A DNA stretch of 64,000 nt, taken from positions 1 through 64,000 of IMG/VR virus record IMGVR_UViG_3300008119_000039, one strand, 5' to 3'. The translations under genes were made by a program, and so were the position numbers. The notes under the pieces are model-generated. The model made no database searches. It saw nothing but the letters and a program-made list of their open reading frames with translations, and was not told the origin of the DNA. Origin of the DNA: a virus. This document shows, piece by piece, positions 1 to 25,189 of the stretch (its first letter is position 1; each line of letters starts with the position of its first letter).

Positions 1-291
1 TTCTATAATTACATGGCGAAGTTCCCAAATGCAAAACAACAAACAATGTGGGCACGTGGGTCATTGGATCAGATGGCAATAGATTCTCTAGCAGTTAAAT
101 TTGACTTAGAAGAAATTACAGGGTATAATGTATGGAGGGATGTTAGAACGGCAGTCGATATCCTATACGGAACTACTAATGGATACGTTGAAGTAGTGCA
201 CCCACTATTTTCTAGACACGAAGTTATCAAGCATCATCCTGTTCACGACTGTGCCCTTGACGCAATGCAATTAATGTATGGAAAACAATAA
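1..291 (+). CDS. 3' part of DEDDh 3'-5' exonuclease (T4 DexA-like), truncated by window edge
   Basis: WARGSLD, RDVRT and HHPVHDCALDA motifs resemble DexA-type exonucleases; directly upstream of the polymerase. Confidence 0.65.
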   Translation, partial: FYNYMAKFPNAKQQTMWARGSLDQMAIDSLAVKFDLEEITGYNVWRDVRTAVDILYGTTNGYVEVVHPLFSRHEVIKHHPVHDCALDAMQLMYGKQ

Positions 292-2780
292 TGATTTTTT
301 ATTCGCACGTATTCCCATTCGGCAACAAAATGTGTGTCCGTGGGTACGAGAATGGTAAACCCTTTCAACGCAAGATTGACTTTTATCCAACTCTGTATGT
401 AAACGCAAAGACTCCAAACACTGAGTGGGCTACTCTCACAGGGCAAGCTGTTGAAGAAATCAAACCTGGAACAGTAAAAGAAACACGAGAGTTTGTCAAA
501 CAGTATGAAGATGTCAGTGGCTTTGACATCTATGGTAATACCAACTACGTTTGTCAATACCTTAGCGACACTTATGAAAGTGATATTCGTTGGGACATGG
601 AACAGATCAAAGTGTTTACCATTGACATTGAGACTGCCACTGAGTCAGGATTCCCAGATATTAAATCAGCCAATGAAGAGATCCTATTAATCACGATTAA
701 AGATTTGCAGTCCAAGCGTATCATTACGTTTGGATCACGTGCATTTGTTCATGGTCGTGATGATGTAATCTACGTTCATTGTAAAGACGAACTGCACCTG
801 CTCAAAGAGTTTATGATTTGGTGGCAGCAAAACTACCCAGATGTTTTAACTGGTTGGAATATTAACTTCTTTGACGTGCCGTATTTAATCAAGCGTGTTT
901 CCCGTGAACTTGGCGAAACCATCGCCAATAAGTTTTCACCATGGGGTTATATCAATGAGCGTAAGATATTTGTTAAAGGTAACGAAGAAATCTCCTACGA
1001 CATTCATGGAGTTTCCCAGCTAGACTATCTTGACTTGTATAAAAAGTTTACTTATCAAAAGCAAGAGTCTTATCGTCTTGATTACATTGCACAAGAAGAA
1101 CTCGGTGATGCCAAGAAAGAAAATCCAGGTGATACGTTCAAAGACTTTTATAATGATCACTGGCAGCAGTTTGTTGAATATAACATCCACGACGTAGAGT
1201 TGGTTGATAAACTTGAAGACAAGATGCGACTAATTGAGTTGTGCCTAACTATGGCGTACAACGCAAAGATTAACTATGAAGATGTGTTCTCTCAAGTACG
1301 TATGTGGGATGCCATTATCTACAATCACTTGCGTAAGAAAAAGATTGCCATTCCAACAAAGACTGGTTCAAGTAAGAATGAACAGTTTGAAGGTGCGTAT
1401 GTAAAAGATGTTTTGGTTGGTGGTCATAAATGGGTAGCTTCCTTTGACTTGAACTCACTGTATCCGCATTTGATTATGCAGTATAATATCTCACCAGAAA
1501 CTCTTACCTCAGAAAAGATTAGCGTAACTGTTGACAAATTGCTGAACAAAGAAGTTGATACATCATATGCCAAACGTAGAGATCTAGCATTAACTGCCAA
1601 TGGTTGGACATATCGCAGAGACGTCAAAGGGTTTATGCCTGAGTTAATGGAAAAGATGTATGCCGATCGTTCAAAGTTTAAAAAGCAGATGCTTAAGATT
1701 GAACAAGAATATCAAAACGACAAATCCAAGAAAGATCTTCTCAAAGAGATTAGCCGACTGAACAATCTACAGATGGCTATGAAGATTGCACTGAACTCTG
1801 CTTATGGTGCCATGGGTAATCAGTACTTCCGATACTTTGATATTCGTATGGCTGAAGGCATTACTACCAGTGGTCAACTATCCATTCGTTGGATGGCGAA
1901 CAAACTAAACGCATTCTTGAACAAAACTCTCAAGACTGAAGGTAAAGACTTTGTTATTGCGATTGACACTGACTCAATCTATCTTACGCTTGAGCACTTG
2001 GTTGAGAAAGTTTGTGAAGGTAAAGATACTGCCGCAAAGATTAAGTTTATGGACAAGATCTGCGAAGAAGTCTTTCAACCATTCATTGATCAAGGTTATC
2101 AAGAACTAGCTGAGTATATGAACGCATACTCGCAAAAGATGATTATGAAGCGTGAGGTGCTGGCTGACAAAGGTATCTGGACTGCCAAGAAACGATATAT
2201 CCTTAACGTGCATAACTCTGAGGGTGTTCAATACGCAAAGCCCAAGCTAAAGGTAATGGGTCTTGAGATGGTTAAGTCAAGTACTCCTGCAGCAATTCGT
2301 GATAAGCTACGAGAATCTATTGATGTAATTCTTAAAGGTAATGAAGCTGACTTGCACGCATACATTGAAACATTCCGTGCCGAGTTTAACCAAATGCCTG
2401 TTGAAGCCATTGCATTCCCTCGTGGTGTTAATGGCTTGCGTCAGTATGCTGGTTCTCCGATCTATTCAAAAGGTACACCGATTCACGTGCGTGGTTCTCT
2501 GTTGTATAATCACTACGTTAAAAAGTTTGGACTAGATAGAAAGTACCAGCTAATTAAAGAAGGTGAGAAGATTAGGTTTATCTACGTCAAGAAACCAAAT
2601 CCATTTAATGAGGATGTCATTGCATTCCCGCAATCTATTCCTAAAGAGTTTGGACTTGAAGAGTTTATTGATTATGAACTGCAGTTTAAAAAGACTTTCC
2701 TTGACGCAATGCAAACTGTAATTGAACCACTTGGTTGGAAAGTTGAACATCAATCATCATTGGAAGACTTCTTTGGATAA
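291..2780 (+). CDS. 43: Family B DNA polymerase (T4 gp43-like)
   Basis: Exo motif DIET; polymerase motifs DLNSLYP, KIALNSAYG, IDTDS; 829 aa, no intein-sized insert. Confidence 0.98.
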   Translation: MIFYSHVFPFGNKMCVRGYENGKPFQRKIDFYPTLYVNAKTPNTEWATLTGQAVEEIKPGTVKETREFVKQYEDVSGFDIYGNTNYVCQYLSDTYESDIRWDMEQIKVFTIDIETATESGFPDIKSANEEILLITIKDLQSKRIITFGSRAFVHGRDDVIYVHCKDELHLLKEFMIWWQQNYPDVLTGWNINFFDVPYLIKRVSRELGETIANKFSPWGYINERKIFVKGNEEISYDIHGVSQLDYLDLYKKFTYQKQESYRLDYIAQEELGDAKKENPGDTFKDFYNDHWQQFVEYNIHDVELVDKLEDKMRLIELCLTMAYNAKINYEDVFSQVRMWDAIIYNHLRKKKIAIPTKTGSSKNEQFEGAYVKDVLVGGHKWVASFDLNSLYPHLIMQYNISPETLTSEKISVTVDKLLNKEVDTSYAKRRDLALTANGWTYRRDVKGFMPELMEKMYADRSKFKKQMLKIEQEYQNDKSKKDLLKEISRLNNLQMAMKIALNSAYGAMGNQYFRYFDIRMAEGITTSGQLSIRWMANKLNAFLNKTLKTEGKDFVIAIDTDSIYLTLEHLVEKVCEGKDTAAKIKFMDKICEEVFQPFIDQGYQELAEYMNAYSQKMIMKREVLADKGIWTAKKRYILNVHNSEGVQYAKPKLKVMGLEMVKSSTPAAIRDKLRESIDVILKGNEADLHAYIETFRAEFNQMPVEAIAFPRGVNGLRQYAGSPIYSKGTPIHVRGSLLYNHYVKKFGLDRKYQLIKEGEKIRFIYVKKPNPFNEDVIAFPQSIPKEFGLEEFIDYELQFKKTFLDAMQTVIEPLGWKVEHQSSLEDFFG

Positions 2781-3324
2781 TATTCGTATCATTAAAACAG
2801 GAATCAATGTTTCAAAGATTTTGAAACAGTTGCAAGAATATCCACAAGATTGGGGTTCTCAGAAAAGCATTGAAGGTGTTAAAGACTTAACCAAAGATTA
2901 TGATGCTTTAAAATTCTTACAAATGGATGTTGGTGCTTTGCAATTAGTTATGGGTGTTGTTTCCAGCAAAGAACAATTTGTTGGAGATAGTGAAATCTCT
3001 AGACCAACACCAGCATATGAAAGACACACAGAAGTCGTTAGATTCTTAAAACGAAATTTTAAGAAATTTGACAGATGTGGATTTTTGTCATTGCCGATAG
3101 GTGGTATTGTCGGTCAGCATATTGACATTGGTAGTTACTATCAAACCAGAGATAGATACCATCTTGCAATTCAAGGCACATACATATACACAGTTGGTGG
3201 TGAATCTGTTACAGTTGAACCTGGAACTCTACTTTGGTTCAACAATAAACTACCTCACGGAACGCAAAACACTGGAGATTGTGTTCGCATAACATTTGTG
3301 TTTGATGTACCTCACAAGAAATAA
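2773..3324 (+). CDS. 2OG-Fe(II) oxygenase, Asp/Asn beta-hydroxylase-like
   Basis: HID...RYHL...WFNNKLPH...RITFVFD facial-triad pattern; probable TTG start overlapping the polymerase stop. Confidence 0.75.
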   Translation: MDNIRIIKTGINVSKILKQLQEYPQDWGSQKSIEGVKDLTKDYDALKFLQMDVGALQLVMGVVSSKEQFVGDSEISRPTPAYERHTEVVRFLKRNFKKFDRCGFLSLPIGGIVGQHIDIGSYYQTRDRYHLAIQGTYIYTVGGESVTVEPGTLLWFNNKLPHGTQNTGDCVRITFVFDVPHKK

Positions 3325-3384: not shown

Positions 3385-4455
3385 ATGGGCATTCTAGATA
3401 AAATTAAAAAGAACAGTACGATTAAAGAATCTGCTATTCTATCACAATCAAAGTTCTTTCAAAAGAAAGATATGATTCCTACTTCAGTACCAATGATCAA
3501 TGTGGCATTGAGTGGTCGTTTGGATGGTGGTTTAACTCCTGGACTTACAATGTGGGCTGGTCCAAGTAAACACTTTAAGACAGCATTTTCTTTGTTAATG
3601 GCAAAAGCATATATGGAAAAGTATGCTGATGCTGTTTTGCTATTCTATGATTCAGAGTTTGGTACACCACAGTCTTACTTTGATTCGTTTGGTATTGATA
3701 CTGAGCGTGTCATTCATACCCCAATCACTGACGTTGAAGAATTGAAGTTTGATATTATGAATCAGCTTGGTGGTATTGAACGTGGTGAACACGTAATTAT
3801 CGTTGTAGATTCTATTGGTAACTTGGCTTCAAAGAAAGAAGTTGAAGACGCATTAGACCAAAAGTCTGTTGGTGATATGACTCGTGCAAAACAAATGAAG
3901 TCATTGTGGCGTATGGTTACTCCGCACTTAAACCTTAAAGATATTCCTTGTGTGGTTGTGAATCATACTTATATGGAAATTGGTTTATATCCAAAAGCTA
4001 TCGTTGGTGGTGGTACTGGTTCTTACTACTCTGCTGACAATATCTTTATTCTTGGTCGTCAGCAAGAAAAGGATGGCACCGAAGTTGTTGGATACAATTT
4101 TATTATTAACGTAGAAAAGTCAAGATATGTGCGAGAAAAATCTAAAATCCCTGTTAGCGTATCTTTTGATGGTGGCATTAGCCGTTGGTCTGGTTTGCTT
4201 GACGTTGCTCTTGAATCTGGACATGTCATCAAACCTAGCAATGGTTGGTATCAAAAGGTAGATGTAGAAAGTGGTGAGATGGACGATAAGAAATATCGCA
4301 TCAAAGAAACTGATACCAAAGAGTTTTGGATGCCAGTTCTAAAGCAGAAATCTTTTATTGATTTTGTCAAAGGTAAGTACACAGTTGCATCTAGCGATAT
4401 TTTAAAAGACGAAGACATCGATGCAGAACTTGCAGCAATTGATGATGAAGAATAA
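3385..4455 (+). CDS. uvsX: RecA-like recombinase UvsX
   Basis: GPSKHFKT P-loop, YDSEFG, VVDSIGNL; T4-like gene order. Confidence 0.95.
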   Translation: MGILDKIKKNSTIKESAILSQSKFFQKKDMIPTSVPMINVALSGRLDGGLTPGLTMWAGPSKHFKTAFSLLMAKAYMEKYADAVLLFYDSEFGTPQSYFDSFGIDTERVIHTPITDVEELKFDIMNQLGGIERGEHVIIVVDSIGNLASKKEVEDALDQKSVGDMTRAKQMKSLWRMVTPHLNLKDIPCVVVNHTYMEIGLYPKAIVGGGTGSYYSADNIFILGRQQEKDGTEVVGYNFIINVEKSRYVREKSKIPVSVSFDGGISRWSGLLDVALESGHVIKPSNGWYQKVDVESGEMDDKKYRIKETDTKEFWMPVLKQKSFIDFVKGKYTVASSDILKDEDIDAELAAIDDEE

Positions 4456-4774
4456 ACCTTACGTTGTCGTTGAAAACAAAGAAGGGTTTGATGCGATAAA
4501 GTTGACCGAAAATCCGTTTGATGGTATAATTTATACTTACGGTAGAGTTTCTTTTGATGAAGATGAAACAACTGGGTATATCAAACTTAAATTTGATTAC
4601 GAGATTTTAGATTATGCGGATAAAGGTTTAAGTGATAAAAAACCATTTGAAAAATACATTGGTGATATATTGCAAGAACTTATTCGTGAAGGTATTGAAA
4701 ATAACAATTTAACATACGCAGGTGGTATTGATGAGAATAGAACAGGCGATCCTATCGAACCTGATTCACAATGA
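4442..4774 (+). CDS. 40: Head vertex assembly chaperone (gp40-like)
   Basis: Size, acidic composition, GIIYTYG..LKFDYEI; conserved position between uvsX and 41. Confidence 0.7.
   Translation: MMKNKPYVVVENKEGFDAIKLTENPFDGIIYTYGRVSFDEDETTGYIKLKFDYEILDYADKGLSDKKPFEKYIGDILQELIREGIENNNLTYAGGIDENRTGDPIEPDSQ
4502..4530 (+). promoter_or_regulatory. Internal sigma70-type promoter upstream of the helicase
   Basis: TTGACC-17 bp-TATAAT. Confidence 0.55.
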
Positions 4775-6128
4775 GGAATATTGCCGCAAGGTAGTCCCTC
4801 ATTTAAAGAAAGAGTATTTCGCTGATAGAAAAGAAGCAGCAATCGTTATGATTCTGCTTAATTTCTTTGAGCAATACAATAAGCCAGCAAGTCCTGATAT
4901 TTTACAGATTGAATTATCTAATCTTAAAGGGTTCACGGATAAAGAGATTCCTGAGATGCAGGAATACGCCAAGACTTTACAAGCTGATGTTGCTACCAAT
5001 CAAGATTGGTTGATTGAAAATAGTGAGAAGTTTTGTAAAGATCGTGCCGTGTATAATGCCATTCTAGATTCAATTAAGATTATTGACGGTAGAGATAAGG
5101 TACATACTCAAGACGCCATTCCAACAATTCTTTCTGAAGCACTTGGTGTGTGTTTTGATAATCACGTTGGTCACGATTACTTACAAGATGCTGAATCTCG
5201 ATTTGACTTTTACCATAGAGTTGAAGAAAAGGTGGCTTTTGATCTTGAGATGTTTAACAAGATTACCAAAGGTGGATTGTCCAAGAAAACCTTAAACATT
5301 GCCCTAGCTGGTACTGGTGTTGGTAAGTCACTCTTTATGTGTCACGTTGCTGCTGGTGTTCTTATGCAAGGTAAGAATGTTCTATACATTACTCTAGAAA
5401 TGGCTGAAGAACGTATCGCTGAACGTATTGACGCAAACTTGTTGAATCTTACTATGGATGAACTAAAGGTAGTTGATAAAGATATCTTTGATTCACGTCT
5501 AGCAAAGATCGCCAATAAAACCAAAGGTACGTTGATTGTAAAAGAATATCCTACTGCAAGTGCACATGCTGGTCACTTCCGTGGATTGCTTGAGGAACTT
5601 AAATTGAAGCGTGAGTTTACGCCAGATATTATTATGATTGACTATCTTAATATCTGCGCATCTTCCAGAATGAAGCAAGGTGCAAATGTAAACTCTTATA
5701 CATATATTAAGGCTATTGCTGAAGAACTACGTGGACTTGCTGTTGAGTATAACGTACCTATTCTTAGTGCAACTCAAACTACAAGATCTGGTTTTACTAA
5801 TTCAGATCCAGGACTTGAAGATACTTCAGAGTCATTTGGTTTGCCAGCAACTGCTGACTTTATGTTTGCCTTAGTGAGTAATGAAGAACTCGAGCAGTTG
5901 AATCAGATTATTGTAAAGCAGTTAAAGAATCGTTATAACGATCCAGGTTTTTATAAACGATTTGTTATTGGTATTGATCGCAGCAAAATGAAACTGTATG
6001 ACGTTGAGATCTCGGCACAAAGCGGATTATCTGATGCAGGTACTAAAGACGATAAGCCTATGTTCGATAAAAGTGAATTTGGTAAACGTATACATAATGA
6101 AGAACAATTTAGTGGATTTAAGTTTTAA
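4731..6128 (+). CDS. 41: Replicative DnaB-like helicase (gp41)
   Basis: AGTGVGKS Walker A, ITLEMAEE, IDYLNI, ATQTTR, KNRY. Confidence 0.97.
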   Translation: MRIEQAILSNLIHNEEYCRKVVPHLKKEYFADRKEAAIVMILLNFFEQYNKPASPDILQIELSNLKGFTDKEIPEMQEYAKTLQADVATNQDWLIENSEKFCKDRAVYNAILDSIKIIDGRDKVHTQDAIPTILSEALGVCFDNHVGHDYLQDAESRFDFYHRVEEKVAFDLEMFNKITKGGLSKKTLNIALAGTGVGKSLFMCHVAAGVLMQGKNVLYITLEMAEERIAERIDANLLNLTMDELKVVDKDIFDSRLAKIANKTKGTLIVKEYPTASAHAGHFRGLLEELKLKREFTPDIIMIDYLNICASSRMKQGANVNSYTYIKAIAEELRGLAVEYNVPILSATQTTRSGFTNSDPGLEDTSESFGLPATADFMFALVSNEELEQLNQIIVKQLKNRYNDPGFYKRFVIGIDRSKMKLYDVEISAQSGLSDAGTKDDKPMFDKSEFGKRIHNEEQFSGFKF

Positions 6129-6137
6129 GGAGCCAAA

Positions 6138-7445
6138 ATGGTAAAAGTTATTGTAGCAGAAAACAAATATGATGCAAAACACATGTTGGGTCAATTTCCA
6201 ACTGAAGCAGATTACGATCTTTTAATTGAAGAAGATATGGACGTTTATATGCCAGAAGTTCCAGGACATCCTGAACTGACATATACCGAAGAACGTATTG
6301 TTCTTAAGTTTCGTAAGAATTACTTTACAAAAGAACAGCAAGAGCAAGCATACGTTGGTTTGAGAGAAGCTGCTGTTGAATCTCAGAATCGTGGTATTGC
6401 TGCTGGTCCACGTCAAGGTTCATTGGGTAATCGCCAGTGGGTAACAGACTACGAATATGATATGCTTGACGTATTCTTAAAGCCAAGTGAAAACTTGTTT
6501 GGTGACGATCCAGTTGAAGTTGTTCGCAATAAACATAAAAATATTGCTGCCAATGCTTCTAATCGTGCACGTGTTTGGTCAGTTGATGGTGTCAAGAAAG
6601 AGAACTTTGTATTTGACACTTGGGTTGATACTGTTCGTAAACTGACACCCGATGCTGCCAAAGCAGAAGCAGAACGTGTAGCTGAAGATCTTATCTGCGC
6701 AACAACTTACGCAAACTCAGTTCACTCTGGCATTGCTGGTTGGTTCGATAGATATCCACGCATTCCTTATGGTCGTGCCACAAGTTATACTCGTGACAAC
6801 TTTGACAAGTTTAAGATGGCCTTTCCTTTCTTACAAACTCTATCACAGGGTTTTAAAGAATTGTTACCGTGGAGATATGGCAATCAAATGGCAGCAGCAA
6901 ATAAACTAGATCCAAACTATTTGGTTCCAGGTACGCCATTTACTACCATTACCGTAAACAAAACTTTCCGTACTGCTTGCCATTATGATGCTGGCGATCT
7001 AACAAGTGGATTGTCTAATCTACTGACTCTTTCAAACACTGGTAACTATTCTGGTTGTTACTTGGTTGCACCTGAGTATCGTGTAGCGGTTAATGTGCGT
7101 CCAGGAGATTTGTTGTTGATTAATAACCACGAAGTTATGCACGGAAATACTGAAATTAAAGTGCACGATGAAATCTCAGAACGTATTAGCTTGGTTTGCT
7201 ACTTCCGTGAAAAGATGCTTGAGTTGGGTTCAAAAGAGTATGAAGATACTCGTTTCCAATTCGTTGAAGATCGTCGTAAGAATAAAGAACATCCAGAGAA
7301 CAGAGCATTGTGGAATGGCGTATCTCCAGGTATGTGGGAATCAGATGAGTGGTATGATTACCTACGCAGCAAACTTGGTGAAGAACAACTGGTGAAGTAT
7401 CATCCAGAATCACAAAAGGCTAACTCACTAGAAAGTTTCTTCTGA
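6138..7445 (+). CDS. TET/JBP-family 2OG-Fe(II) dioxygenase (5-methylpyrimidine oxidase candidate)
   Basis: FTTITVNKTFRTACHYDAGD (HxD), HGNT, RISLVCYFRE (2OG-binding Arg) pattern of phage TET/JBP proteins. Confidence 0.8.
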   Translation: MVKVIVAENKYDAKHMLGQFPTEADYDLLIEEDMDVYMPEVPGHPELTYTEERIVLKFRKNYFTKEQQEQAYVGLREAAVESQNRGIAAGPRQGSLGNRQWVTDYEYDMLDVFLKPSENLFGDDPVEVVRNKHKNIAANASNRARVWSVDGVKKENFVFDTWVDTVRKLTPDAAKAEAERVAEDLICATTYANSVHSGIAGWFDRYPRIPYGRATSYTRDNFDKFKMAFPFLQTLSQGFKELLPWRYGNQMAAANKLDPNYLVPGTPFTTITVNKTFRTACHYDAGDLTSGLSNLLTLSNTGNYSGCYLVAPEYRVAVNVRPGDLLLINNHEVMHGNTEIKVHDEISERISLVCYFREKMLELGSKEYEDTRFQFVEDRRKNKEHPENRALWNGVSPGMWESDEWYDYLRSKLGEEQLVKYHPESQKANSLESFF

Positions 7446-8122
7446 TGTGTGCCGTCATTGGAGCCATCCTGCAGAAACCAACTCTGCAGGATTTTGATAT
7501 GTTACATCGTGTATTCCTAGAGTCCAAGATTCGTGGTATGCACGCAACTGGAATATCTTATGTCAAGAATGACCGAGTTGTTACTGAGAAGCACCCTGTA
7601 CCTGCCAATGAGTTTCCTTTTAATTTTGCAGAGTATGTTAATGAAGATGGGAATCTCTACCTTATTGGTCACTGTCGTTACAGCACTAGCGATCTTGAGT
7701 ATAATCAGCCAATTGGTAATGATTTACATTCAATAGTTCACAATGGAGTTATCACTCAAGAACTACCAGAACGTTGGAAAGAATTGTATAATTATGATTG
7801 TGAAACAAAGAACGATAGCGAGTTAGTCCTACACTCGCATTCGCCACTTGAAGAGTTTCCTGATATGTCTATGGGTGTTTGTGAATTAACCAACGATAAG
7901 AAGCTACTTGCGTATCGTAACGGCAAGCGACCATTATACTTGACTAGTATTTCAAATGGATGTATAATTACTTCTACTGCTGATATTCCTAAACGTGCAG
8001 AAGTAGAAGGATTCCCTATTAACCTTTTACCAAACCACTATACTACATTTGATAGTGAGTTGGCTATGACTATTGAAAAGGTTAATATTGATGCTGTTGA
8101 TTACCAACTTATAGGTGACTGA
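7445..8122 (+). CDS. Class II (Ntn) glutamine amidotransferase
   Basis: N-terminal MC nucleophile, RG.HATG, GHCRYST, HNGVI, NDSE, RPL. Confidence 0.85.
   Translation: MCAVIGAILQKPTLQDFDMLHRVFLESKIRGMHATGISYVKNDRVVTEKHPVPANEFPFNFAEYVNEDGNLYLIGHCRYSTSDLEYNQPIGNDLHSIVHNGVITQELPERWKELYNYDCETKNDSELVLHSHSPLEEFPDMSMGVCELTNDKKLLAYRNGKRPLYLTSISNGCIITSTADIPKRAEVEGFPINLLPNHYTTFDSELAMTIEKVNIDAVDYQLIGD
7940..7968 (+). promoter_or_regulatory. Internal sigma70-type promoter upstream of the amidoligase
   Basis: TTGACT-17 bp-TATAAT. Confidence 0.5.
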
Positions 8123-8997
8123 TGAACTATCCAAAAGAAAAATTTACATACGGTATGGAAATAGAGTGGGGTGATGTTCCTCGCTCTTTTTCAATTCCAG
8201 AACATCTTGGTACTTGGGAATACTCCGAGCGAGATATTATTAACCTACGTGATCCATACAAAAATGTATGTGCAGATCCATTGGGTGAAGATCCTCCATT
8301 TGGTGGCGAGATTAATACCAAGCCAACTCGTACTTGGGCTGGTCAAGTAGAACGATACTTTGAACTGCAGAAACTATTTACTGATGCTGGTCATCCACCA
8401 ACAGTAGGTGTTACTGCCCATACACACATTCACTGTCGCATTCCTGGATTGCGTGACGACATCGATGCACTAAAGCGACTAACCAAATATATTAAAGATA
8501 ACCAAACAACAACAGTTGATCGTGTTTATGGTTTCTATGACCACAATCAAATGAAAGGTGCCAAAGGTGCCAAGATGTATTTGAAGTTTGATGGTGGTCG
8601 CACTATGCCAGATTATATGAGTGATAACATTATCAATCTAGCCACTGACTTCAATTCTTTTATTAAGATGCACGCTGCAGGTAAAGATGGCGTTTCAATG
8701 GGTAGACCATTTCGTTATGCCATTAATATGTATGCACTGAAACATATTGATACTGTAGAGTTTCGTTTATTCCGTGGCACGTTGGATAAAGTAGAATTGG
8801 AATCTTGCTTTCGTTTCGTTGAAGACTTTCTTGATGCTGCATTAAATGATGGTGCCAGTGTAGATGATCTAATCAATACCAATGGTTATACGTTTCCACC
8901 AATGCAGTGGGATCTTGCTCAATTCATTGGATGGGAAAAGACAAAGCACCCAGAAGATCGTGGTGAGAAAGTGAGAACTCTTGTTGAGGTTGAGTAA
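8122..8997 (+). CDS. Putative amidoligase (COOH-NH2 ligase, glutamine synthetase-like fold)
   Basis: GMEIEW, GGEINT, HTHIH, RYAIN, TVEFRLFRGT motifs. Confidence 0.75.
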   Translation: MNYPKEKFTYGMEIEWGDVPRSFSIPEHLGTWEYSERDIINLRDPYKNVCADPLGEDPPFGGEINTKPTRTWAGQVERYFELQKLFTDAGHPPTVGVTAHTHIHCRIPGLRDDIDALKRLTKYIKDNQTTTVDRVYGFYDHNQMKGAKGAKMYLKFDGGRTMPDYMSDNIINLATDFNSFIKMHAAGKDGVSMGRPFRYAINMYALKHIDTVEFRLFRGTLDKVELESCFRFVEDFLDAALNDGASVDDLINTNGYTFPPMQWDLAQFIGWEKTKHPEDRGEKVRTLVEVE

Positions 8998-9532
8998 ATG
9001 TTCACGTGATGATTTTGTAAATAGTATATCTACTGACAAGGGAGATAACTTTGCAAAAACATTTGTTGCTAAAGCAGATATGCAAGATCAATGGGAGTAT
9101 TGTATCGGTGCTTGGGATGGTAACGAATTAACAGCTGCAATTATAACTACCATATCCAAAAATAAACCCCACGTGGCTAACCTGCAACTCTTACATACCT
9201 TTGTAAAACACCGAGGAAAGGGAGCTGCCAGGATCCTATGCGAGGACTCTTTAAAGCGTGCTAGAGCGTCTGCAGCGACTTACTTTAGGGTATCCTCAGA
9301 GAAGTCTGCCGTAGGCTTCTACGAGCGTCTAGGGTTCCGATTCTGGGGTTCCCAAAAGAGTGGTTGTCAGCTGTCCATCTTTAGGATAGGGGGAGATACC
9401 TTCCTACAGGGCGACTACGACCTTTCCGACATGACCATCAATAAAGCGGTCAACCGTAAGGGTAAGGGAGGTTGTACGACCCTCTACGACCTTGCTACGA
9501 GCCAAATAGGGGTCAAATTAGATCAAATTTAG
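8981..9532 (+). CDS. GNAT-family acetyltransferase
   Basis: HRGKGAA acetyl-CoA motif A and AVGFYERLGF motif. Confidence 0.85.
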   Translation: MLRLSKCSRDDFVNSISTDKGDNFAKTFVAKADMQDQWEYCIGAWDGNELTAAIITTISKNKPHVANLQLLHTFVKHRGKGAARILCEDSLKRARASAATYFRVSSEKSAVGFYERLGFRFWGSQKSGCQLSIFRIGGDTFLQGDYDLSDMTINKAVNRKGKGGCTTLYDLATSQIGVKLDQI

Positions 9533-9533
9533 C

Positions 9534-9562
9534 TTTACTTTAATTGCAAAATAGGGTATAAT
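9534..9562 (+). promoter_or_regulatory. sigma70-type phage promoter with TTAATTG spacer motif
   Basis: TTTACT-TTAATTG...-TATAAT, 17-bp spacer. Confidence 0.75.
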
Positions 9563-9589
9563 AAAGGTTGGACAATTGAGGAATTTATT

Positions 9590-9889
9590 ATGACACACTT
9601 GAGAAAAGAAAATTTAGCTGTTGTTACAAGAGAAATCGCAAAAGACCATTGGGTTGCAAACTTAGATGGAACTAAATCAAGAGCAGTTTCTTGGTGTAAG
9701 ACTTGTAGAGTTTATAAACCATTGACTGCATTTTATTTGAAATCAAAAAGTACAAGAAAACATAGCAATCATGTCAGAGGTGATTGTTGTATTTGTTTTG
9801 ATGAAAAGGTTAAATCATCAAGAGAGATACGAGAAGACTTACAAGCACAAAAATCATTAGGTAAAATCTTTCAGATAAATGGATTATAG
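9590..9889 (+). CDS. Small zinc-finger protein
   Basis: CKTC...FY...CCIC; GAGG RBS. Confidence 0.6.
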   Translation: MTHLRKENLAVVTREIAKDHWVANLDGTKSRAVSWCKTCRVYKPLTAFYLKSKSTRKHSNHVRGDCCICFDEKVKSSREIREDLQAQKSLGKIFQINGL

Positions 9890-10898
9890 GCTACAACAAA
9901 ATCGCAGAGAAGCATTCATACGCTGGTACGCATGGTCATTGAAGTATGATGATTGCGACCCAGCAGTATGGGCAACTAACTATATAAACGATCGTTACGA
10001 ACATAACGACGAGCAGAAACTTTGGTTGTGTTGGTTATATGGTAATACATACTATCTGCCAACTGCTTGGGTATTGATGAACGAGTTTCCCGACTATGAG
10101 TTGGCAACTGTTGATCGTATGACTCAATGGAATACTGCTAATTATAAACGTCTACGTTATCAGACTGACACAAAATGGAACAAGGGGCATCTTCCAACCA
10201 TGTTCGCATCGTATCAACAATTCATTGGTGGAAGAACACAAAGGGACAGATTGGAAAGTTATTATGGAAACACTGAGAAGGACAACTTTGATAACTTGTG
10301 GGAAGGCATTAAGTCTAGCTTGCATAAGTTTGGTCGTTACAGTACTTGGTTTTATCTTCAGCATCTTAAGCATACCTCTGGTGTTCGGATCGATCCTACT
10401 TCTCTCATGCTGGACGATTATGATGGCTCTCGCTCTCATCGTAATGGATTACTTTATGCCCTCGGACAAGAAGACAGTGTGGATAGAAAACTCACTGCAG
10501 TGGAGTATGCAAATCTTGAGTCACAAGCCCAAGAGATTCTTGCAGAGACGAAAGCAAGATTTCCAGAACTCGCATCGTCTATAGATTACTTTACAATGGA
10601 AACCTGCCTTTGTTCGTATAAGAAAATCTTTAGAGAACACCACGGCAGATACCTTGGGTATTACCTAGATCGTCAAGCTGAGGAAATTATTAAAGTTGAA
10701 GGTGATGGATGGTATGGTATTGATTGGGATGTGCTGTGGCAATCCCGAGAAGAAACTATTGATTTACGTCTAGATCACAAGCGTGGTATAGATAAAGAAA
10801 AGTTTAAGTATTTTACCAATACAGGTAAAATGGATAATCTTGAGTGGATGTTTGATGATGAACAGCGACAAGCTATTGGACTAGAGGAATTTTTATGA
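9879..10898 (+). CDS. Amino acid:DNA transferase-like protein (aGPT-Pplase2, HhH-glycosylase fold)
   Basis: WLCWLYG, KFGRYSTWFYLQHL, METCLCSYKK motifs; adjacent to a P-loop kinase. Confidence 0.75.
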   Translation: MDYRLQQNRREAFIRWYAWSLKYDDCDPAVWATNYINDRYEHNDEQKLWLCWLYGNTYYLPTAWVLMNEFPDYELATVDRMTQWNTANYKRLRYQTDTKWNKGHLPTMFASYQQFIGGRTQRDRLESYYGNTEKDNFDNLWEGIKSSLHKFGRYSTWFYLQHLKHTSGVRIDPTSLMLDDYDGSRSHRNGLLYALGQEDSVDRKLTAVEYANLESQAQEILAETKARFPELASSIDYFTMETCLCSYKKIFREHHGRYLGYYLDRQAEEIIKVEGDGWYGIDWDVLWQSREETIDLRLDHKRGIDKEKFKYFTNTGKMDNLEWMFDDEQRQAIGLEEFL

Positions 10899-11434
10899 GA
10901 AAATTGATTGCAGTTGGTGGTTCTCCAGGAACAGGTAAAACTACCTTGTTCCGTAAATTTATGGAAGGTAAAACTTGGGAGAGAGTTGAGCCCAAGAAAA
11001 TGTTACCTGCACTCTACTGTGCCGAGTTAGATCTTTACATTCTAGGCAAGTACGAAGATGGTGAAACATTCGCTGGAACAGATCGTTTAAGTATGGCTGT
11101 TCAACCAGTGGCTCAACAGTTCGTTAAGGAAACTACGTCAAATATCTTATTTGAAGGCGATCGTATCTTTAACCAGTCTTTCCTAGAATTCTCTATGGAG
11201 TTACCCGATACCGATCTACAAGTGATATTCCTAAAGGTTCCCAAGGAAATGCTTGAGCAAAGGTATAAGGATCGTGGATCCGACCAATCGGAGATATTCC
11301 TAAAGGGTCGTAATACTAAATATAATAACCTATTGTCAAATTTTGAGTTGATGCCGTACATTACTGAGTTTGTGAACACTAACTTAGAGGAGCAGGGGAA
11401 AGTTCTAACCTTTTTAGAAGGTCAATTAGGGTAA
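10895..11434 (+). CDS. P-loop nucleotide kinase (5hmU-DNA kinase-like)
   Basis: GGSPGTGKTT, LGKY...GTDRLS, LFEGDR; coupled to the aGPT-Pplase2-like gene. Confidence 0.75.
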   Translation: MRKLIAVGGSPGTGKTTLFRKFMEGKTWERVEPKKMLPALYCAELDLYILGKYEDGETFAGTDRLSMAVQPVAQQFVKETTSNILFEGDRIFNQSFLEFSMELPDTDLQVIFLKVPKEMLEQRYKDRGSDQSEIFLKGRNTKYNNLLSNFELMPYITEFVNTNLEEQGKVLTFLEGQLG

Positions 11435-11454
11435 GGATAGGACTTTCTAGGATT

Positions 11455-12162
11455 ATGAATTACCTAGAAACCGCAGACTTCAATTGGATGGAAATGCTCA
11501 ATTTCTATGAGCAACCATTTAGAGCTAAACTCATTCCATCAAAAGTATGGAGAGATCTCGACAAGTATAAAAACGATAGCGTTGGTTTAGCCAACTATAC
11601 TAAAAAGTGGCGTACCAAAATAGAGTTTAGAAAAGCACCATCTGCAGCAAAGGTTTGGAAAACCTACGCATCAATCGGTGGTGAATATTCCCCAGATGAA
11701 CGTCAGTGTGCCTTACAAATCTACACACTGGACTTTGATAAGTTTCCATTCACCAAGGTATCTTGGGATAGATTTAAGTATCGCTTTATTCAAACTCTGA
11801 TGCACGAGTTGATTCACTTTATGCAGTACGATCGTCGTGGTGACGAGTGGAGCAATTACGTATTACCGCATAAGAAAGTTGGTCACATTAAGAAAGATGC
11901 TGAGCGTAGATATCTTTCTGAGTTTGATGAGATACAAGCATACGCTCATTGCATTTATCTAGACTTTAAAATGTTTCGCCCAAGATTAGAGATAGAAACT
12001 TTACTTGGCAGAGCGGGACAATATACAGATTCAAAGACTTTACATTACTTCCTAAAGACATTCAACTACGACTACAAGAATAACGCTGCGATTCCAAAGA
12101 TAATGCAGCAGATTATCAAGTGGGACAACAAGTATCAACGATACGCCAACAAGCCTAAATAG
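11455..12162 (+). CDS. HExxH zinc metallopeptidase-like protein
   Basis: MHELIHFMQ...EIQAYA; ACTAAATA late-like motif at 11315-11322. Confidence 0.55.
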   Translation: MNYLETADFNWMEMLNFYEQPFRAKLIPSKVWRDLDKYKNDSVGLANYTKKWRTKIEFRKAPSAAKVWKTYASIGGEYSPDERQCALQIYTLDFDKFPFTKVSWDRFKYRFIQTLMHELIHFMQYDRRGDEWSNYVLPHKKVGHIKKDAERRYLSEFDEIQAYAHCIYLDFKMFRPRLEIETLLGRAGQYTDSKTLHYFLKTFNYDYKNNAAIPKIMQQIIKWDNKYQRYANKPK

Positions 12163-12181
12163 TAGTCTAATAGGATTACTA
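12154..12181 (+). promoter_or_regulatory. T4-type late promoter plus RBS-sequestering hairpin
   Basis: CCTAAATA at 12154-12161; TAGTAGTCT/GGATTACTA stem covers the GGA RBS and the A of ATG 12181. Confidence 0.6.
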
Positions 12182-13501
12182 TGGCAACAGATTATTCAAA
12201 ACTAGCAACATCAGCCAAGAAGATGGTAGATTATCTTTCTACCAAAGGTATCAAGGTATCTTTAAAATCTTCAAGATATAAAAACTGTTGGTATAACTGC
12301 AACAGTTACTGACCTAACTCCCACAGAAGAAAAAGCAATTTCTGGTAAGTACAAAGCCAAGCTAATGACTCTTACCAAAGTTCTTGGTACTATTGCCAAG
12401 GGTGAAACCTTTTACATTGTAAATACCTATACTGAAAAAGGTACGCTAAAAACAAAAGAGTTAGCACCAGAAAAGTTTAATCTAACTACTAGCAAATACA
12501 CAACACTAGAATCTCTGGATAAAGCTGTATTGACTGGTATTAAAGAAAACGCTACCCTACCATCAGATATTAAAGTTGTGCTAACAGAATTATATAAAAC
12601 AGTTAGCACAAACAAAAACCCCAAAGACATTATTCCAATGACTACTCCAGCCAAGAAATCACTTGCTGGAGTTAAGCCACAAGACAAACAAGCTATTGGT
12701 AAAGACTTTGGTGAAGTTCTTTCTATGCGTTGGTATTTAACTCAACCATTTGCTTCCACTTGGCAACAAGCATTCTTTTCAGATATTAGTAATGAAGCAT
12801 TGGTAGACTTTGTTGTTATGAAAAAATCTGGCAAAGAAACTATTCGTACTGACATATCAGCAAAGTTTGAAGCAGGTGCTGCACCATCTATTGGTGCCAT
12901 TGTTACTAATATTGATAAAGTTTATAAAGCTCCAAACAAAGATGAAGCCATTGTAATTAATGTGCTAAAAGCATTGGCTGGCGAAAATGATAATACATCA
13001 ACTAAGATTTTAGCTGCCATGAAATCTCTTAATCTGCCAGCGTATACCACACTAAAGAAAACTATTGGTGCCAAAGGTAACTTTACTATTCAAGATATTT
13101 CTGCACATATTCAACAGATTGCCAAAGTAGGTAAAACTGATAAGGCTAGAATTAAATTATTTAAATCTACATATGAAGAGTTTTATAATGTTCTTGGTAA
13201 AAACGCAAGCGATGATTCTGTTAATATTGTAATGACACCAACTACATATAAAAAGTATTATTCATTGGTAATGGCACCAATGGGTTATGCCCTAGTTGAT
13301 TATATGAATAAACAACCACAGTATCAAGAAGTGTTAAATAAGATTAGTCAGTATATGAAAACCGAGCAAGTATACTTAAATTTCTCTGGTGATAACCTAG
13401 AGTTTAAAAAGAAACTGTTTTCAAAGGCTGAGTTTAAATTTGCCTACGGAGCCAACGCTAAAGACTCCGACAACACAGGCATCAAGTTCTCTATGAAATA
13501 A
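12181..13501 (+). pseudogene. Frameshifted hypothetical protein, possibly PD-(D/E)xK nuclease-like
   Basis: ATG 12181 frame stops at 12312; the +1 frame is open from about 12281 to 13501; DFGE...VDF...ISAK motif. Confidence 0.5.
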
Positions 13502-23489: not shown

Positions 23490-24512
23490 ATGCTATACAT
23501 TGACAACAAATTTGCAAGTATTCTTGGATCACGTCTAAGAAACTTTAAACAAAAAAACGATTATCTGTGGAACTATTCTTGCCCAGTATGCGGGGATAGT
23601 TCTAAGAATAAATTAAAGGCACGTGGATACATCTACCGTAAAGGTTCTGATTTATTCGTTCGGTGTCATAACTGCAACTACGGTTCAAATCTTGGTAGCT
23701 TAATCAAGTATGTAGATGCTAAACTTTATGATGAGTACGTTCTTGAACGCTACAAAGGTGGTGCTAGTAAACACAACGCACACAAAGATGTGGCAGCAAT
23801 CCTCCCAGAAGAAACCCCAGAAGTATTTCTAGAAGATGCTATTCTAGAGAGTTTGGCTCGCCTAGATACGTTAGACATCACACACCCTGCTGTAAAATAT
23901 TTAATTAAAAGAAAGATTCCAAAACAATATTGGAATCTACTTTATTTTGCACCTAAGTTTAAAAAGTTTACCAACTCAGTAACACCTAAGTTTCAGGAAC
24001 CAATTGAAGGTGATCATCCAAGAATGATCATTCCGTTTTTTAACCCAGCAGGTAAATGTTTTGCTTATCAAGGTAGAGCGTATGGCGATGAGCAACCCAA
24101 GTACTATACAATTAAAGTTGATGAAACACAGGAGAAAATATATGGACTCGATCGCTTGGATTATAGCAAACGCATATACGTTGTTGAAGGACCAATTGAT
24201 TCGTTATTCTTACCGAATTCAATTGCTGTTTCAGGAGCAAGTTTTGATACCCCTACTATTCGGCAGTTACTTACTAATGCAACGATTGTAATGGACAATG
24301 AACCCCGCAATAAAGATATAGCAAGACAACTTGAAAAATATATCGATTTGGGGTATAATGTAGTTATGTATCCTGATTCAGTTCAGGAAAAAGATATTAA
24401 CGATATGGTTTTATCGGGTAGATCGCCTGATGAAATTCTAGAACTCATAAATACCAATACCTTCACTGGTATGGAAGCGAAATTAAAATATGCGAATTGG
24501 AGAAAGAATTGA
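23490..24512 (+). CDS. 61: DNA primase (gp61)
   Basis: CPVCGDS...CHNC zinc finger; VEGPIDS and DNEPRN..KDIND TOPRIM motifs. Confidence 0.95.
   Translation: MLYIDNKFASILGSRLRNFKQKNDYLWNYSCPVCGDSSKNKLKARGYIYRKGSDLFVRCHNCNYGSNLGSLIKYVDAKLYDEYVLERYKGGASKHNAHKDVAAILPEETPEVFLEDAILESLARLDTLDITHPAVKYLIKRKIPKQYWNLLYFAPKFKKFTNSVTPKFQEPIEGDHPRMIIPFFNPAGKCFAYQGRAYGDEQPKYYTIKVDETQEKIYGLDRLDYSKRIYVVEGPIDSLFLPNSIAVSGASFDTPTIRQLLTNATIVMDNEPRNKDIARQLEKYIDLGYNVVMYPDSVQEKDINDMVLSGRSPDEILELINTNTFTGMEAKLKYANWRKN
24331..24359 (+). promoter_or_regulatory. Internal sigma70-type promoter upstream of thyX
   Basis: TTGAAA-17 bp-TATAAT. Confidence 0.5.
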
Positions 24513-25189
24513 AAGTCAATTTAATTAGTTATAGTAAGCCCTCCATTACCATGTATGAAGAAGGTCTCAAAGATGCTCAAGAACTCATAGCTTATTGCGC
24601 ACGAGTTTCTAATCCAAGCAATCAATTTAATGTTGAAACAGCTGACAAGCTAATTCGTTATCTAATTAAACACAAACACTGGTCACCACTAGAAATGGTT
24701 AGTGCTTGTCTCGAAATTGAAACAACTCGAGATATTGCTCGCCAAATTTTACGCCATCGCTCTTTTAGTTTTCAAGAATTCAGCCAACGCTACGCAGATC
24801 CAACTAAGGACTTATCATTTGTCTTAAGAGAAGCAAGACTCCAAGACGAAAAGAATCGTCAAAATAGTGTAGAGTTACCAGCCACAATTGCTGGGCAGAA
24901 TATTGCTGAAGAGTGGTATGCTAGACAAAGAGAAATTCTAGCATTAGTGACAAAAACGTATGACTGGGCAATCTCACAAGGTATTGCTAAAGAACAAGCA
25001 AGAGCAATTCTACCAGAAGGAAATACAGTTAGTCGTTTATACATGAACGGTACACTGCGTAGTTGGATACACTACATCGAGTTGCGCAGTGGTAATGGTA
25101 CACAAAAAGAACATGTGGAAGTAGCAAGGGAATGTGCTAAAGTTATTGCTGAAGCATTTCCAATGTCTACGGATTTTATTAATCAATAA
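24509..25189 (+). CDS. thyX: Flavin-dependent thymidylate synthase
   Basis: RHRSFSFQEFSQRY ThyX motif, HWSPLE, EQARAILP; probable TTG start. Confidence 0.95.
   Translation: MKVNLISYSKPSITMYEEGLKDAQELIAYCARVSNPSNQFNVETADKLIRYLIKHKHWSPLEMVSACLEIETTRDIARQILRHRSFSFQEFSQRYADPTKDLSFVLREARLQDEKNRQNSVELPATIAGQNIAEEWYARQREILALVTKTYDWAISQGIAKEQARAILPEGNTVSRLYMNGTLRSWIHYIELRSGNGTQKEHVEVARECAKVIAEAFPMSTDFINQ

Follow-up and report, generated by a model that had tools for sequence, protein, structure and literature searches.

The window analysed here, the first 64 kb of the 84.5-kb IMG/VR record IMGVR_UViG_3300008119_000039, comes from a T4-like, freshwater, uncultured phage, and the record is estimated to be 53% complete. 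We propose that positions 6138-11434 of this window are an operon for the hypermodification of thymidine after replication, encoding a TET/JBP-family dioxygenase (TET), a class-II, N-terminal nucleophile (Ntn) glutamine amidotransferase (GAT), an amidoligase, a GNAT acyltransferase, an amino-acid:DNA transferase (AADT) and a P-loop kinase. We regard this assignment, with the steps given below, as likely, and a role in DNA thymine hypermodification of some kind as a shade likelier still. Thymidine hypermodifications shield the DNA of phages against restriction and against CRISPR nucleases, and they are a source of new DNA-modifying enzymes.

We infer the chemistry throughout from families, residues and context. 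The TET enzyme would first hydroxylate thymine in DNA to 5-hydroxymethyluracil (5hmU), an activity that has been shown for the phage superfamily and is predicted here, and the kinase would then phosphorylate the new hydroxyl, as its family and its pairing with the AADT suggest. In the third step Cys245 of the AADT would attack C6 with the assistance of Glu241, so that the phosphate leaves and a nucleophile joins the exocyclic methylene. This nucleophile may be ammonia freed from glutamine by the Ntn amidotransferase, which would give 5-aminomethyl-deoxyuridine (5-aminomethyl-dU). The amidoligase would use ATP to link a carboxylate, possibly an amino acid, to the amine, and the GNAT would acylate the product. 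In a group of relatives that we call variant B, a different GNAT (GNAT2) alone would replace the amidoligase and the GNAT to give 5-acetylaminomethyl-dU. The order of steps in which ammonia passes to the AADT is put forward with somewhat less than even confidence.

Clusters of this type are already published (Lee 2021, PMC8989533; O'Toole 2026, PMC13229309), and the gene set itself is unsurprising to a specialist. Lee et al. described metavirome contigs without a dUMP hydroxymethylase in which TET_JBP lies beside kinase and AADT genes, together with co-associated amidoligases and amidotransferases whose functions are stated as unknown and whose roles are left as an open question (PMC8989533). 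O'Toole et al. gave the biochemistry of phage T-dioxygenases and tied neighbourhoods of GATase, kinase and AADT to a ParB-dependent subclass of them (PMC13229309). The initial annotation of the window was thus right that similar neighbourhoods had been predicted before. The clusters of Lee et al. share with the window the same families, TET_JBP instead of a dUMP hydroxymethylase and combinatorial gene permutations; unlike the analysis here, the sections of that paper drawn on give no GAT or amidoligase role and no clamp-type tails (PMC8989533). The version in the window differs from the published ones in its long (435 aa) ParB-less TET, in polymerase-like tails shared between enzymes and in clean natural drop-outs among relatives. 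A literature search on amidoligase, hypermodification and phage found no paper giving the amidoligase a role, and within the terms and library searched no paper dealt with clamp tails on enzymes of hypermodification. Two testable mechanistic proposals result, namely that ammonia is channelled to a DNA transferase and that clamp tethering takes the place of ParB.

Enzyme families and the partner of the amidotransferase

Families were called with the curated (gathering) cut-offs of Pfam and with PHROG profiles, and Pfam matches were listed at E<=0.01. The helicase gene is followed by seven plus-strand open reading frames (ORFs) with ends that overlap or almost abut (Table 1). The initial annotation had named six coupled enzyme genes here and all six are in place on the plus strand after the helicase, five of them above their Pfam cut-offs; what its list omitted is the seventh ORF, of 99 aa. 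Its TET/JBP and aGPT-Pplase2 calls are borne out by Tet_JBP at 91.3 bits against a cut-off of 34.9 (93.8 bits in a six-frame search) and by ADDT at 79.6 bits against 26.2. The amidotransferase, GNAT and kinase calls hold as well, with GATase_6 at 36.2 bits (cut-off 27), Acetyltransf_10 at 45 bits (cut-off 23.6) and Ploopntkinase3 at 33.4 bits (cut-off 27).

The residues expected of these families are conserved. In the TET protein H282, D284, H335 and R349, the HxD...H triad and the arginine for 2-oxoglutarate (2OG), are invariant in 25 homologues and line up with the residues that bind iron and 2OG in human TET2; among solved structures, searching by sequence and profile brought up only weak TET2 matches (E=0.008). 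The GAT begins with Met-Cys, and its C2, R78, N100, G101 and D124, invariant across 45 distinct relatives, are presumably equivalent to the glutamine-site residues of PurF and GlmS. The acyl-CoA-binding motif of GNATs is R/Q-x-x-G-x-G/A, and the GNAT has the stretch HRGKGAA at 77-83, in which R78 and G81 are invariant in 13 relatives. The AADT residues E241, T242 and C245 are invariant and align with the SKML-39 (ViI-like) and Cygsa01 homologues at 29% identity. E241 and C245 would be the counterparts of the residues mutated by Lee et al., who found the conserved Cys and a neighbouring Glu to be essential in M6 gp51 and ViI gp247 (PMC8989533).

The kinase has the Walker A motif GGSPGTGKTT, with G8, G9, P11, G12, G14, K15 and T16 invariant, and is a probable 5-hydroxymethyldeoxyuridine (5-hmdU) DNA kinase, judging by its family and its pairing with the AADT. 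It weighs against this that the protein has no match to PF18748 or PF18747, the 5-hmdU DNA kinase families, at E<=0.01; Ploopntkinase3 is a sibling of these two. In mycobacteriophage genomes, homologues of the kinase lie at the left end, paired with an AADT. The kinase homologue is present in 301 Mycobacterium phage records and is gene 1 in all 23 listed (e.g. Colbert and Orion), where it is annotated 'adenylate kinase' or 'terminase small subunit', and the AADT homologue is gene 3 in VioletZ. The 'terminase small subunit' label is probably wrong.

The amidoligase required more work to place. Alone, the 291-aa protein reaches 12.6 bits for Amidoligase_2 against a cut-off of 22 (E=0.12), over its last 33 residues only. 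A phmmer run, made exhaustively against 1.84 billion representatives, returned 294 relatives at E<=0.001, and 79 near-full-length ones were put into one alignment with the window protein. PF12224 is matched at E<=0.001 (best 3.7e-13) by 47 of the 80 aligned sequences, and G11, E13, E15, E63, R198, E213 and R215 are invariant, so that the initial call is upheld through the homologues only. Fused homologues reach up to 42.6 bits for Amidoligase_2. Ten longer relatives were scanned for fusion partners: P0244 joins the amidoligase to a GNAT and a 5-hmdU DNA kinase domain, P0259 and P0288 to 5-hmdU DNA kinase 2, P0262 likewise with a GNAT in addition, P0305 to a 5-hmdU DNA kinase domain, P0335 to a GATase, and P0363 to a phosphatase and a TET-associated glycosyltransferase (TAGT). 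The fusions to 5-hmdU DNA kinase domains support a role in DNA modification, and the family is a divergent Amidoligase_2 branch that accompanies DNA-base-modifying enzymes. For the amidoligase, solved structures searched by sequence and profile gave zero matches, and tblastn against cultured phages gave two only. Vibrio phage 2.275.O (MG592671.1, 332034-337242) carries an amidoligase homologue, 28% identical (E=6e-10), with a QueF-like protein, a queuosine biosynthesis protein, GTP cyclohydrolase I and an Ntn 'nucleophile aminohydrolase' as neighbours, a hint that an amidoligase paired with an Ntn enzyme serves to tailor further modified bases as well.

The relatives of the cassette provide the best view of which enzymes belong together. 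Scanning IMG/VR with the TET protein gave 317 confirmed relatives, from which the best 80 loci were kept (69-97% identity), and island content was determined by tblastn of the window proteins and by clustering of all ORFs. A fixed frame runs through the loci, consisting of uvsX, the helicase, TET, a variable module and a conserved 235-aa gene. Thirty-nine loci (38 fetched plus the window) span the interval from TET to the 235-aa gene; the other 42 end at a contig edge before one bound and are left out of the counts. The window type, variant A, with GAT, amidoligase, GNAT, AADT and kinase, makes up 9 of the 39. Variant B (21/39) has GAT, GNAT2 (213-226 aa, Acetyltransf_1; e.g. L020:11100-11780), AADT, a small protein c9 and kinase, with GNAT2 doubled in three loci, a 2OG oxygenase added in two and a radical-SAM enzyme in one. 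In five more the TAGT stands alone after TET (PF20691, E=5e-19), and in the last four TET is followed by two unknown genes only, of ~335 and ~150 aa. Classing by marker genes placed 73 of 81 sources, 19 as A, 43 as B, 5 as C and 6 as C'.

All the alternative modules would act downstream of the hydroxymethyl base. The two-gene module (L019:11320-12773, L016, L064) has zero Pfam or PHROG matches and is a candidate third, undescribed route of 5hmU tailoring. The radical-SAM enzyme, of 503 aa, lies between AADT and kinase in its variant-B locus (L061:6881-8392) and recalls the isomerase step of M6.

The island genes are co-conserved, and modularly so: GAT, AADT and kinase occur together in 30/30 loci and are jointly missing in the other 9/9, some GNAT is present in every one of the 30, and the amidoligase is found only alongside its own GNAT. 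This bears out the expectation that the genes would be conserved together. Trees were computed for AADT and GAT. The window AADT pairs as sister with one from variant B (support 99/95), the window GAT falls inside a clade of six variant-B GATs (support 96/84), and the A/B label requires at least two changes on each tree. From these placements the swap of amidoligase plus GNAT for GNAT2 happened on a shared core, and divergence of the transferase is not tied to whether the amidoligase is present. Amidoligase and GNAT fit better as an exchangeable tailoring pair.

This becomes important when asking what the GAT serves. A stand-alone glutaminase needs an acceptor, and since 21 of the 30 loci lack the amidoligase, the acceptor there would have to be the AADT, GNAT2, c9 or the kinase. 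Seven longer GAT homologues were found, all with the GAT N-terminal, as the Cys nucleophile requires, and three of them are fusions to an AADT (P0395, with 11 member sequences, P0396 and P0397). The mechanism described for the M6 and ViI homologues of the AADT has an intermediate that takes the glycine amine, the serine hydroxyl, putrescine, mercaptoethanol and hydride from borohydride (PMC8989533). Taken together, the GAT-AADT fusions, the amidoligase drop-outs and this broad range of nucleophiles favour ammonia feeding the AADT. Several points weigh against this. Two of the seven fusions are to the amidoligase (P0392, P0335) and two to GNAT2 (P0393, P0394), which fit glutamine-dependent amidation of a carboxylate equally well, and fusions between operon neighbours could be frameshift artefacts of gene calling. 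As to the amidated or acetylated side chain that was first suggested for this cassette, the families it calls for are there, and its pairing of GAT with amidoligase fits the drop-outs and fusions less well than a GAT serving the AADT.

The nearest alternative, which we think rather unlikely, has the AADT installing a free amino acid, the GAT and amidoligase amidating its side-chain carboxylate to a carboxamide and the GNAT acetylating the amine. In its favour, the characterised clade-2 AADTs named in the sections of Lee et al. drawn on here all use an amino acid or polyamine, with glycine in M6 and PaMx11 and serine in ViI (PMC8989533). The GAT-amidoligase fusions speak for it too, as do the adjacency of the two genes with a one-base overlap, the amidoligase homologue near an Ntn aminohydrolase in the 7-deazaguanine cluster of Vibrio phage 2.275.O and the recurrence of a GAT-II and amidoligase pair in LUZ24/tf-like phages. 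However, most GAT loci keep GAT, AADT and kinase without the amidoligase, the window AADT and GAT cluster with amidoligase-less relatives, so that specificity does not track the amidoligase, and three of the seven GAT fusions are to the AADT itself.

Pseudomonas phage PaMx11 offers a comparison for the amine route, and variant B would reach the PaMx11 base along a different path. Like the window it has a kinase, a clade-2 AADT and a GNAT, and 5-aminomethyl-dU is predicted to be formed and then N-acylated; its product is 5-acetylaminomethyl-dU, made with the gp49 kinase, the gp46 glycine:DNA transferase, the gp47 FAD lyase and the gp48 acetyltransferase (PMC8989533). PaMx11, however, draws its 5hmU from the nucleotide pool and relies on the flavin lyase to unmask the amine from glycine (PMC8989533), whereas the cassette has no flavin enzyme and has TET, GATase and amidoligase instead.

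That GAT, amidoligase and GNAT act off the DNA, either making a small-molecule donor for the AADT, such as an acylated amine or the amide of an amino acid, or in an unrelated modification of peptide or cell wall, has only a small chance in our view. The LUZ24/PaP3/tf-like module (annotated in NC_017971 as GAT-II, Amidoligase_2, COOH-NH2 ligase, ATP-grasp and GGCT) resembles the window in that an Ntn amidotransferase and an Amidoligase_2 are paired within the early region of a phage, and with the same two families it has been interpreted as peptidoglycan modification (PMC11945000). It differs in having no TET, AADT or kinase and a long GAT, and is read as peptide or cell-wall chemistry. It also favours this alternative that GAT and amidoligase lack the polymerase-like tail described below. 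Against it stand the amidoligase fusions to 5-hmdU kinase (P0244, P0259, P0262, P0288, P0305) and to TAGT (P0363), the fusion of GAT to AADT, the restriction of the genes to the island in the 39 spanning loci, and the tail on GNAT2 and most variant-A GNATs.

The close relatives form a natural dissection set, with TET plus glycosyltransferase, the core plus one GNAT, and the core plus amidoligase and GNAT. Together with the fusions, these drop-outs make the amidotransferase and amidoligase question directly testable.

The source of 5-hydroxymethyluracil

The phage makes dTMP through ThyX and so builds its DNA with T, and thymine is the sole 5-methylpyrimidine that it is seen to make. The initial annotation recorded ThyX and saw no hydroxymethylase in the window. 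This absence extends to the whole 84.5-kb record, where PF00303, the thymidylate-synthase family that includes the dUMP and dCMP hydroxymethylases, has 0 matches, as has PF00145, the C5 DNA methyltransferase. Since the source record is a fragment, three complete relatives of 160-164 kb were searched as well (in one of them, G001, the TET is 97% identical to that of the window), and each family was found in 0/3, with control genomes matching as expected. The rest-of-genome check that had been suggested for a methyltransferase or hydroxymethylase turned up none in the record or in these relatives.

With no hydroxymethylase or C5 methyltransferase found and ThyX present, oxidation of T in DNA is the economical reading. 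Phage 5mYOX enzymes, members of the TET/JBP superfamily, hydroxylate T in DNA to 5hmU, and the lack of a neighbouring C5 methyltransferase has been used to predict T-dioxygenases (O'Toole et al., PMC13229309). The TET encoded in the cassette is probably a thymine hydroxylase acting on DNA, and the pathway likely starts with thymine oxidised after replication, a suggestion that these absences and the published activity of the superfamily (PMC13229309) have strengthened. One result speaks against it, as certain enzymes of clade C1 that lack ParB are reported to show no activity in E. coli (PMC13229309). Action of the TET on 5-methylcytosine (5mC) from a host or undetected phage methylase, with cytosine hypermodified as in the clade A/B phage TET pathways, is very improbable: the superfamily does include 5mC oxidases, and in vitro 5mC is a substrate of 5mYOX97 and 176 as well (PMC13229309), but PF00145 is missing from the record and the complete relatives, 5hmU is the only base with which the AADT and its kinase are known in the work cited (PMC8989533), and the absent neighbouring methyltransferase itself predicts a T-dioxygenase (PMC13229309).

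Polymerase-like tails and the absence of ParB

T4-type polymerases grip the gp45 clamp through a C-terminal peptide, and in the window both TET and AADT end in peptides that resemble the tail of the phage's own DNA polymerase. A loose form of the tail motif is present in 4 of the 131 ORFs of the record, namely the polymerase (SSLEDFFG), TET (NSLESFF), AADT (GLEEFL) and the baseplate hub. In the near-identical complete relative a strict form picks out 5 of 232 ORFs, where composition predicts 0.07; these are the polymerase, TET, AADT, baseplate hub and head-tail adaptor. Conservation reaches 90% or more at L431, F434 and F435 of the TET tail. Among the 80 loci, all common TET variants bear the tail, as do the AADTs (for instance as GLEMFT or GLEIFA), 42 of 50 GNAT2 proteins (PSLEEFL.) and 5/5 TAGTs (NTLDEFFG), and most variant-A GNATs have a weaker form. 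The TET tail also follows the polymerase tail in three more distant T4-like phages: C48C1 (polymerase ATLEDFFG, TET ISLEEFFV), DLP6 (ATLDSFFA, ATLGDFFV) and Cr30 (ADLSSLFD, TGATLF). The short TETs of podophages have no tail, and the one of HTVC112P adjoins a ParB-like gene; the 139-kb cyanophage S-CBWM1 has a 478-aa TET homologue without a tail. A gp45 homologue is present in the complete relative (phrog_223, E=1e-72), and locus L091 has one at 1501-2160.

From these peptides we consider the chances about even that TET and AADT in the window, and GNAT2 and the glycosyltransferase in relatives, dock on a gp45-type sliding clamp. There is precedent in T4, where the alpha-glucosyltransferase binds the gp45 clamp (Sommer 2004, confirmed in PMC13216743), as a base-modifying enzyme of a T4-type phage held on the clamp in the way proposed here. 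In T4 the binding was seen by pull-down, whereas here it would follow from a C-terminal peptide shared by several enzymes of one pathway. Clamp-binding motifs are also borne by gp33 and gp55, on a linker (PMC7892883).

A number of observations count against clamp docking. The motif was defined after the TET and AADT tails had been seen, and it also occurs on the baseplate hub and the head-tail adaptor. The clamp gene is absent from the 84.5-kb fragment and was found only in the near-identical complete relative, and the gp55 homologue has no tail motif. The kinase lacks the tail and has a conserved end of its own, FLEGxF/L, while the GNAT of the window ends in KLDQI. Within the 80 loci GAT, amidoligase, c9, the ParB_N protein and the radical-SAM enzyme are all without the tail. 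The hub (phrog_150) ends in LQSFF and the adaptor (phrog_211) in LDMFLG (G000:C1:77085-77804, minus strand; G001 94424-95161); these two tails are either chance or the same peptide reused in assembly.

The 5mYOX clade C1 shares with the window a T-dioxygenase with GATases, P-loop kinases and AADTs, no adjoining C5 methyltransferase and a C-terminal extension on the dioxygenase (PMC13229309). The window differs in having no ParB_N and in a TET of 435 aa, with an extra N-terminal region of 170 residues and the polymerase-like tail; ParB-independent 5mYOX homologues are of ~290-300 aa (PMC13229309). ParB (PF02195/ParB_N) has no match in the 84.5-kb record or in any of the three complete relatives. 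Residues 173-374 form a core common to the short podophage TETs, and residues 1-172 are limited to T4-like phages. The N-terminal region was considered as a fused ParB and rejected, as hhalign against the ParB_N protein of relatives gave a probability of 0.07% (with shallow profiles), and an ESM Atlas search with residues 1-200 gave low-score TET-like leads only (0.81).

If the tail does bind the clamp, this would explain how the enzymes reach the whole 160-kb genome after replication, and ParB would not be needed. A joint version of the proposals would then be a clamp-coupled pathway that replaces ParB, in which ammonia from the GAT reaches the AADT to give 5-aminomethyl-dU in one step and the amidoligase builds a chemically undescribed, amide-linked and acetyl-capped side chain. 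It would add that the non-homologous TET, AADT, GNATs and TAGT each acquired the clamp tail of the polymerase. We put this combination forward tentatively, as something that may well not hold in all its parts.

Gene setting and further observations

The coordinates of the cassette and of the genes around it are collected in Table 1.

Table 1. Features of the window discussed in the text, with the junction sites of two related loci.
Feature	Position	Strand	Remark
Family-B DNA polymerase, C-terminus SSLEDFFG	291..2780	+	phrog_262, E=0; reference for tail comparison
UvsX recombinase	3385-4455		Upstream of TET gene
DnaB-like helicase	4722-6128		Directly upstream of TET gene; Pfam search
TET/JBP-family 5-methylpyrimidine dioxygenase (putative), 435 aa	6138..7445	+	Tet_JBP PF12851, E=5e-26
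TET C-terminal tail NSLESFF, candidate sliding-clamp-binding motif	7422..7442	+	Resembles DNA polymerase tail
Class-II (Ntn) glutamine amidotransferase (GAT), stand-alone domain, 225 aa	7445..8122	+	GATase_6 PF13522, E=7e-9
Divergent Amidoligase_2 / COOH-NH2 ligase, 291 aa	8122..8997	+	PF12224 via homologues
GNAT acyltransferase, 183 aa, TTG start as listed	8981..9532	+	PF13673 (Acetyltransf_10), E=1e-11
GNAT-AADT junction	Window 9532-9889; L006:13464-14000; L032:9127-10422		
99-aa ORF between GNAT and AADT	9590..9889	+	Weak HNH PHROG match, E=7e-4
Amino-acid:DNA transferase (AADT, formerly aGPT-Pplase2, clade 2), 339 aa	9879..10898	+	ADDT PF18724, E=4e-22
AADT tail GLEEFL	10878-10895	+	Resembles DNA polymerase tail
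P-loop kinase, 179 aa	10895..11434	+	Ploopntkinase3 PF18751, E=4e-8
235-aa flanking gene with HExxH motif (MHELIHF)	11455..12162	+	In 39/39 spanning loci
ThyX thymidylate synthase	24497-25189	+	PF02511, E=2e-44

The junction between GNAT and AADT is probably a hotspot for homing endonucleases and not the home of an activator. Its occupants are the 99-aa ORF in the window, an HNH/EndoVII gene in a relative that is 97% identical, a ParB_N protein of 431 aa in five related loci, and ORFs of 192-197 aa in two (L042, L052). The start of the ParB_N protein has a GIY-YIG-like motif, found by eye, and contigs of the freshwater run X1 break at this junction. The 99-aa ORF is absent from this position in 80/80 related loci, with a single match at the far end of one locus (L064), and is probably a remnant or a small mobile nuclease gene outside the pathway.

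The 235-aa flanking gene closes the variable island in every variant, regardless of the module that precedes it, and its best family hint is a weak one to SprT-like proteins (E=0.06). As a matter of speculation, a protease for DNA-protein crosslinks would fit beside enzymes that form covalent DNA adducts. On the other side of the cassette, the C-terminal end (F)xGFKF of the DnaB-like helicase is kept across the 80 relatives and may be another docking peptide. Genes for cupin/2OG-Fe(II) oxygenases are dispersed in this phage group (window 2722-3324, L091:2170-2820, L055:1676-2287), and lie between polymerase and uvsX in the window, beside the clamp gene, and after TET in two relatives.

Scans of 5900-12500 gave 16 promoters against 19.7 in shuffles and 6 terminators against 3.3, neither above the shuffles, and operon boundaries are not claimed from them. 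Contigs in two RNA libraries, 90-97% alike to the cassette, cover 12/30 and 15/30 of its bins; since DNA can occur in RNA libraries, expression of the cassette is not claimed. None of the raw reads of run X21 (~3% examined) was placed on the cassette. The phage is common, as at least half of the sampled words of the cassette are found in 18 DNA runs (13 studies), of which 13 carry a freshwater or lake-water label, and in run X1 the full cassette stretch is covered at ~100x word depth with few differences.

A megablast of the cassette against cultured phages gave zero matches. At the protein level, Caulobacter phage Cr30 (KF301602.1, 51794-60681) has a TET homologue 45% identical to that of the window and, ~7 kb away, a kinase homologue at 40% (E=3e-36), with an annotated inositol-1-phosphate synthase and many hypotheticals between them. 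Cr30 may thus hold another TET-initiated pathway, in a cultured phage.

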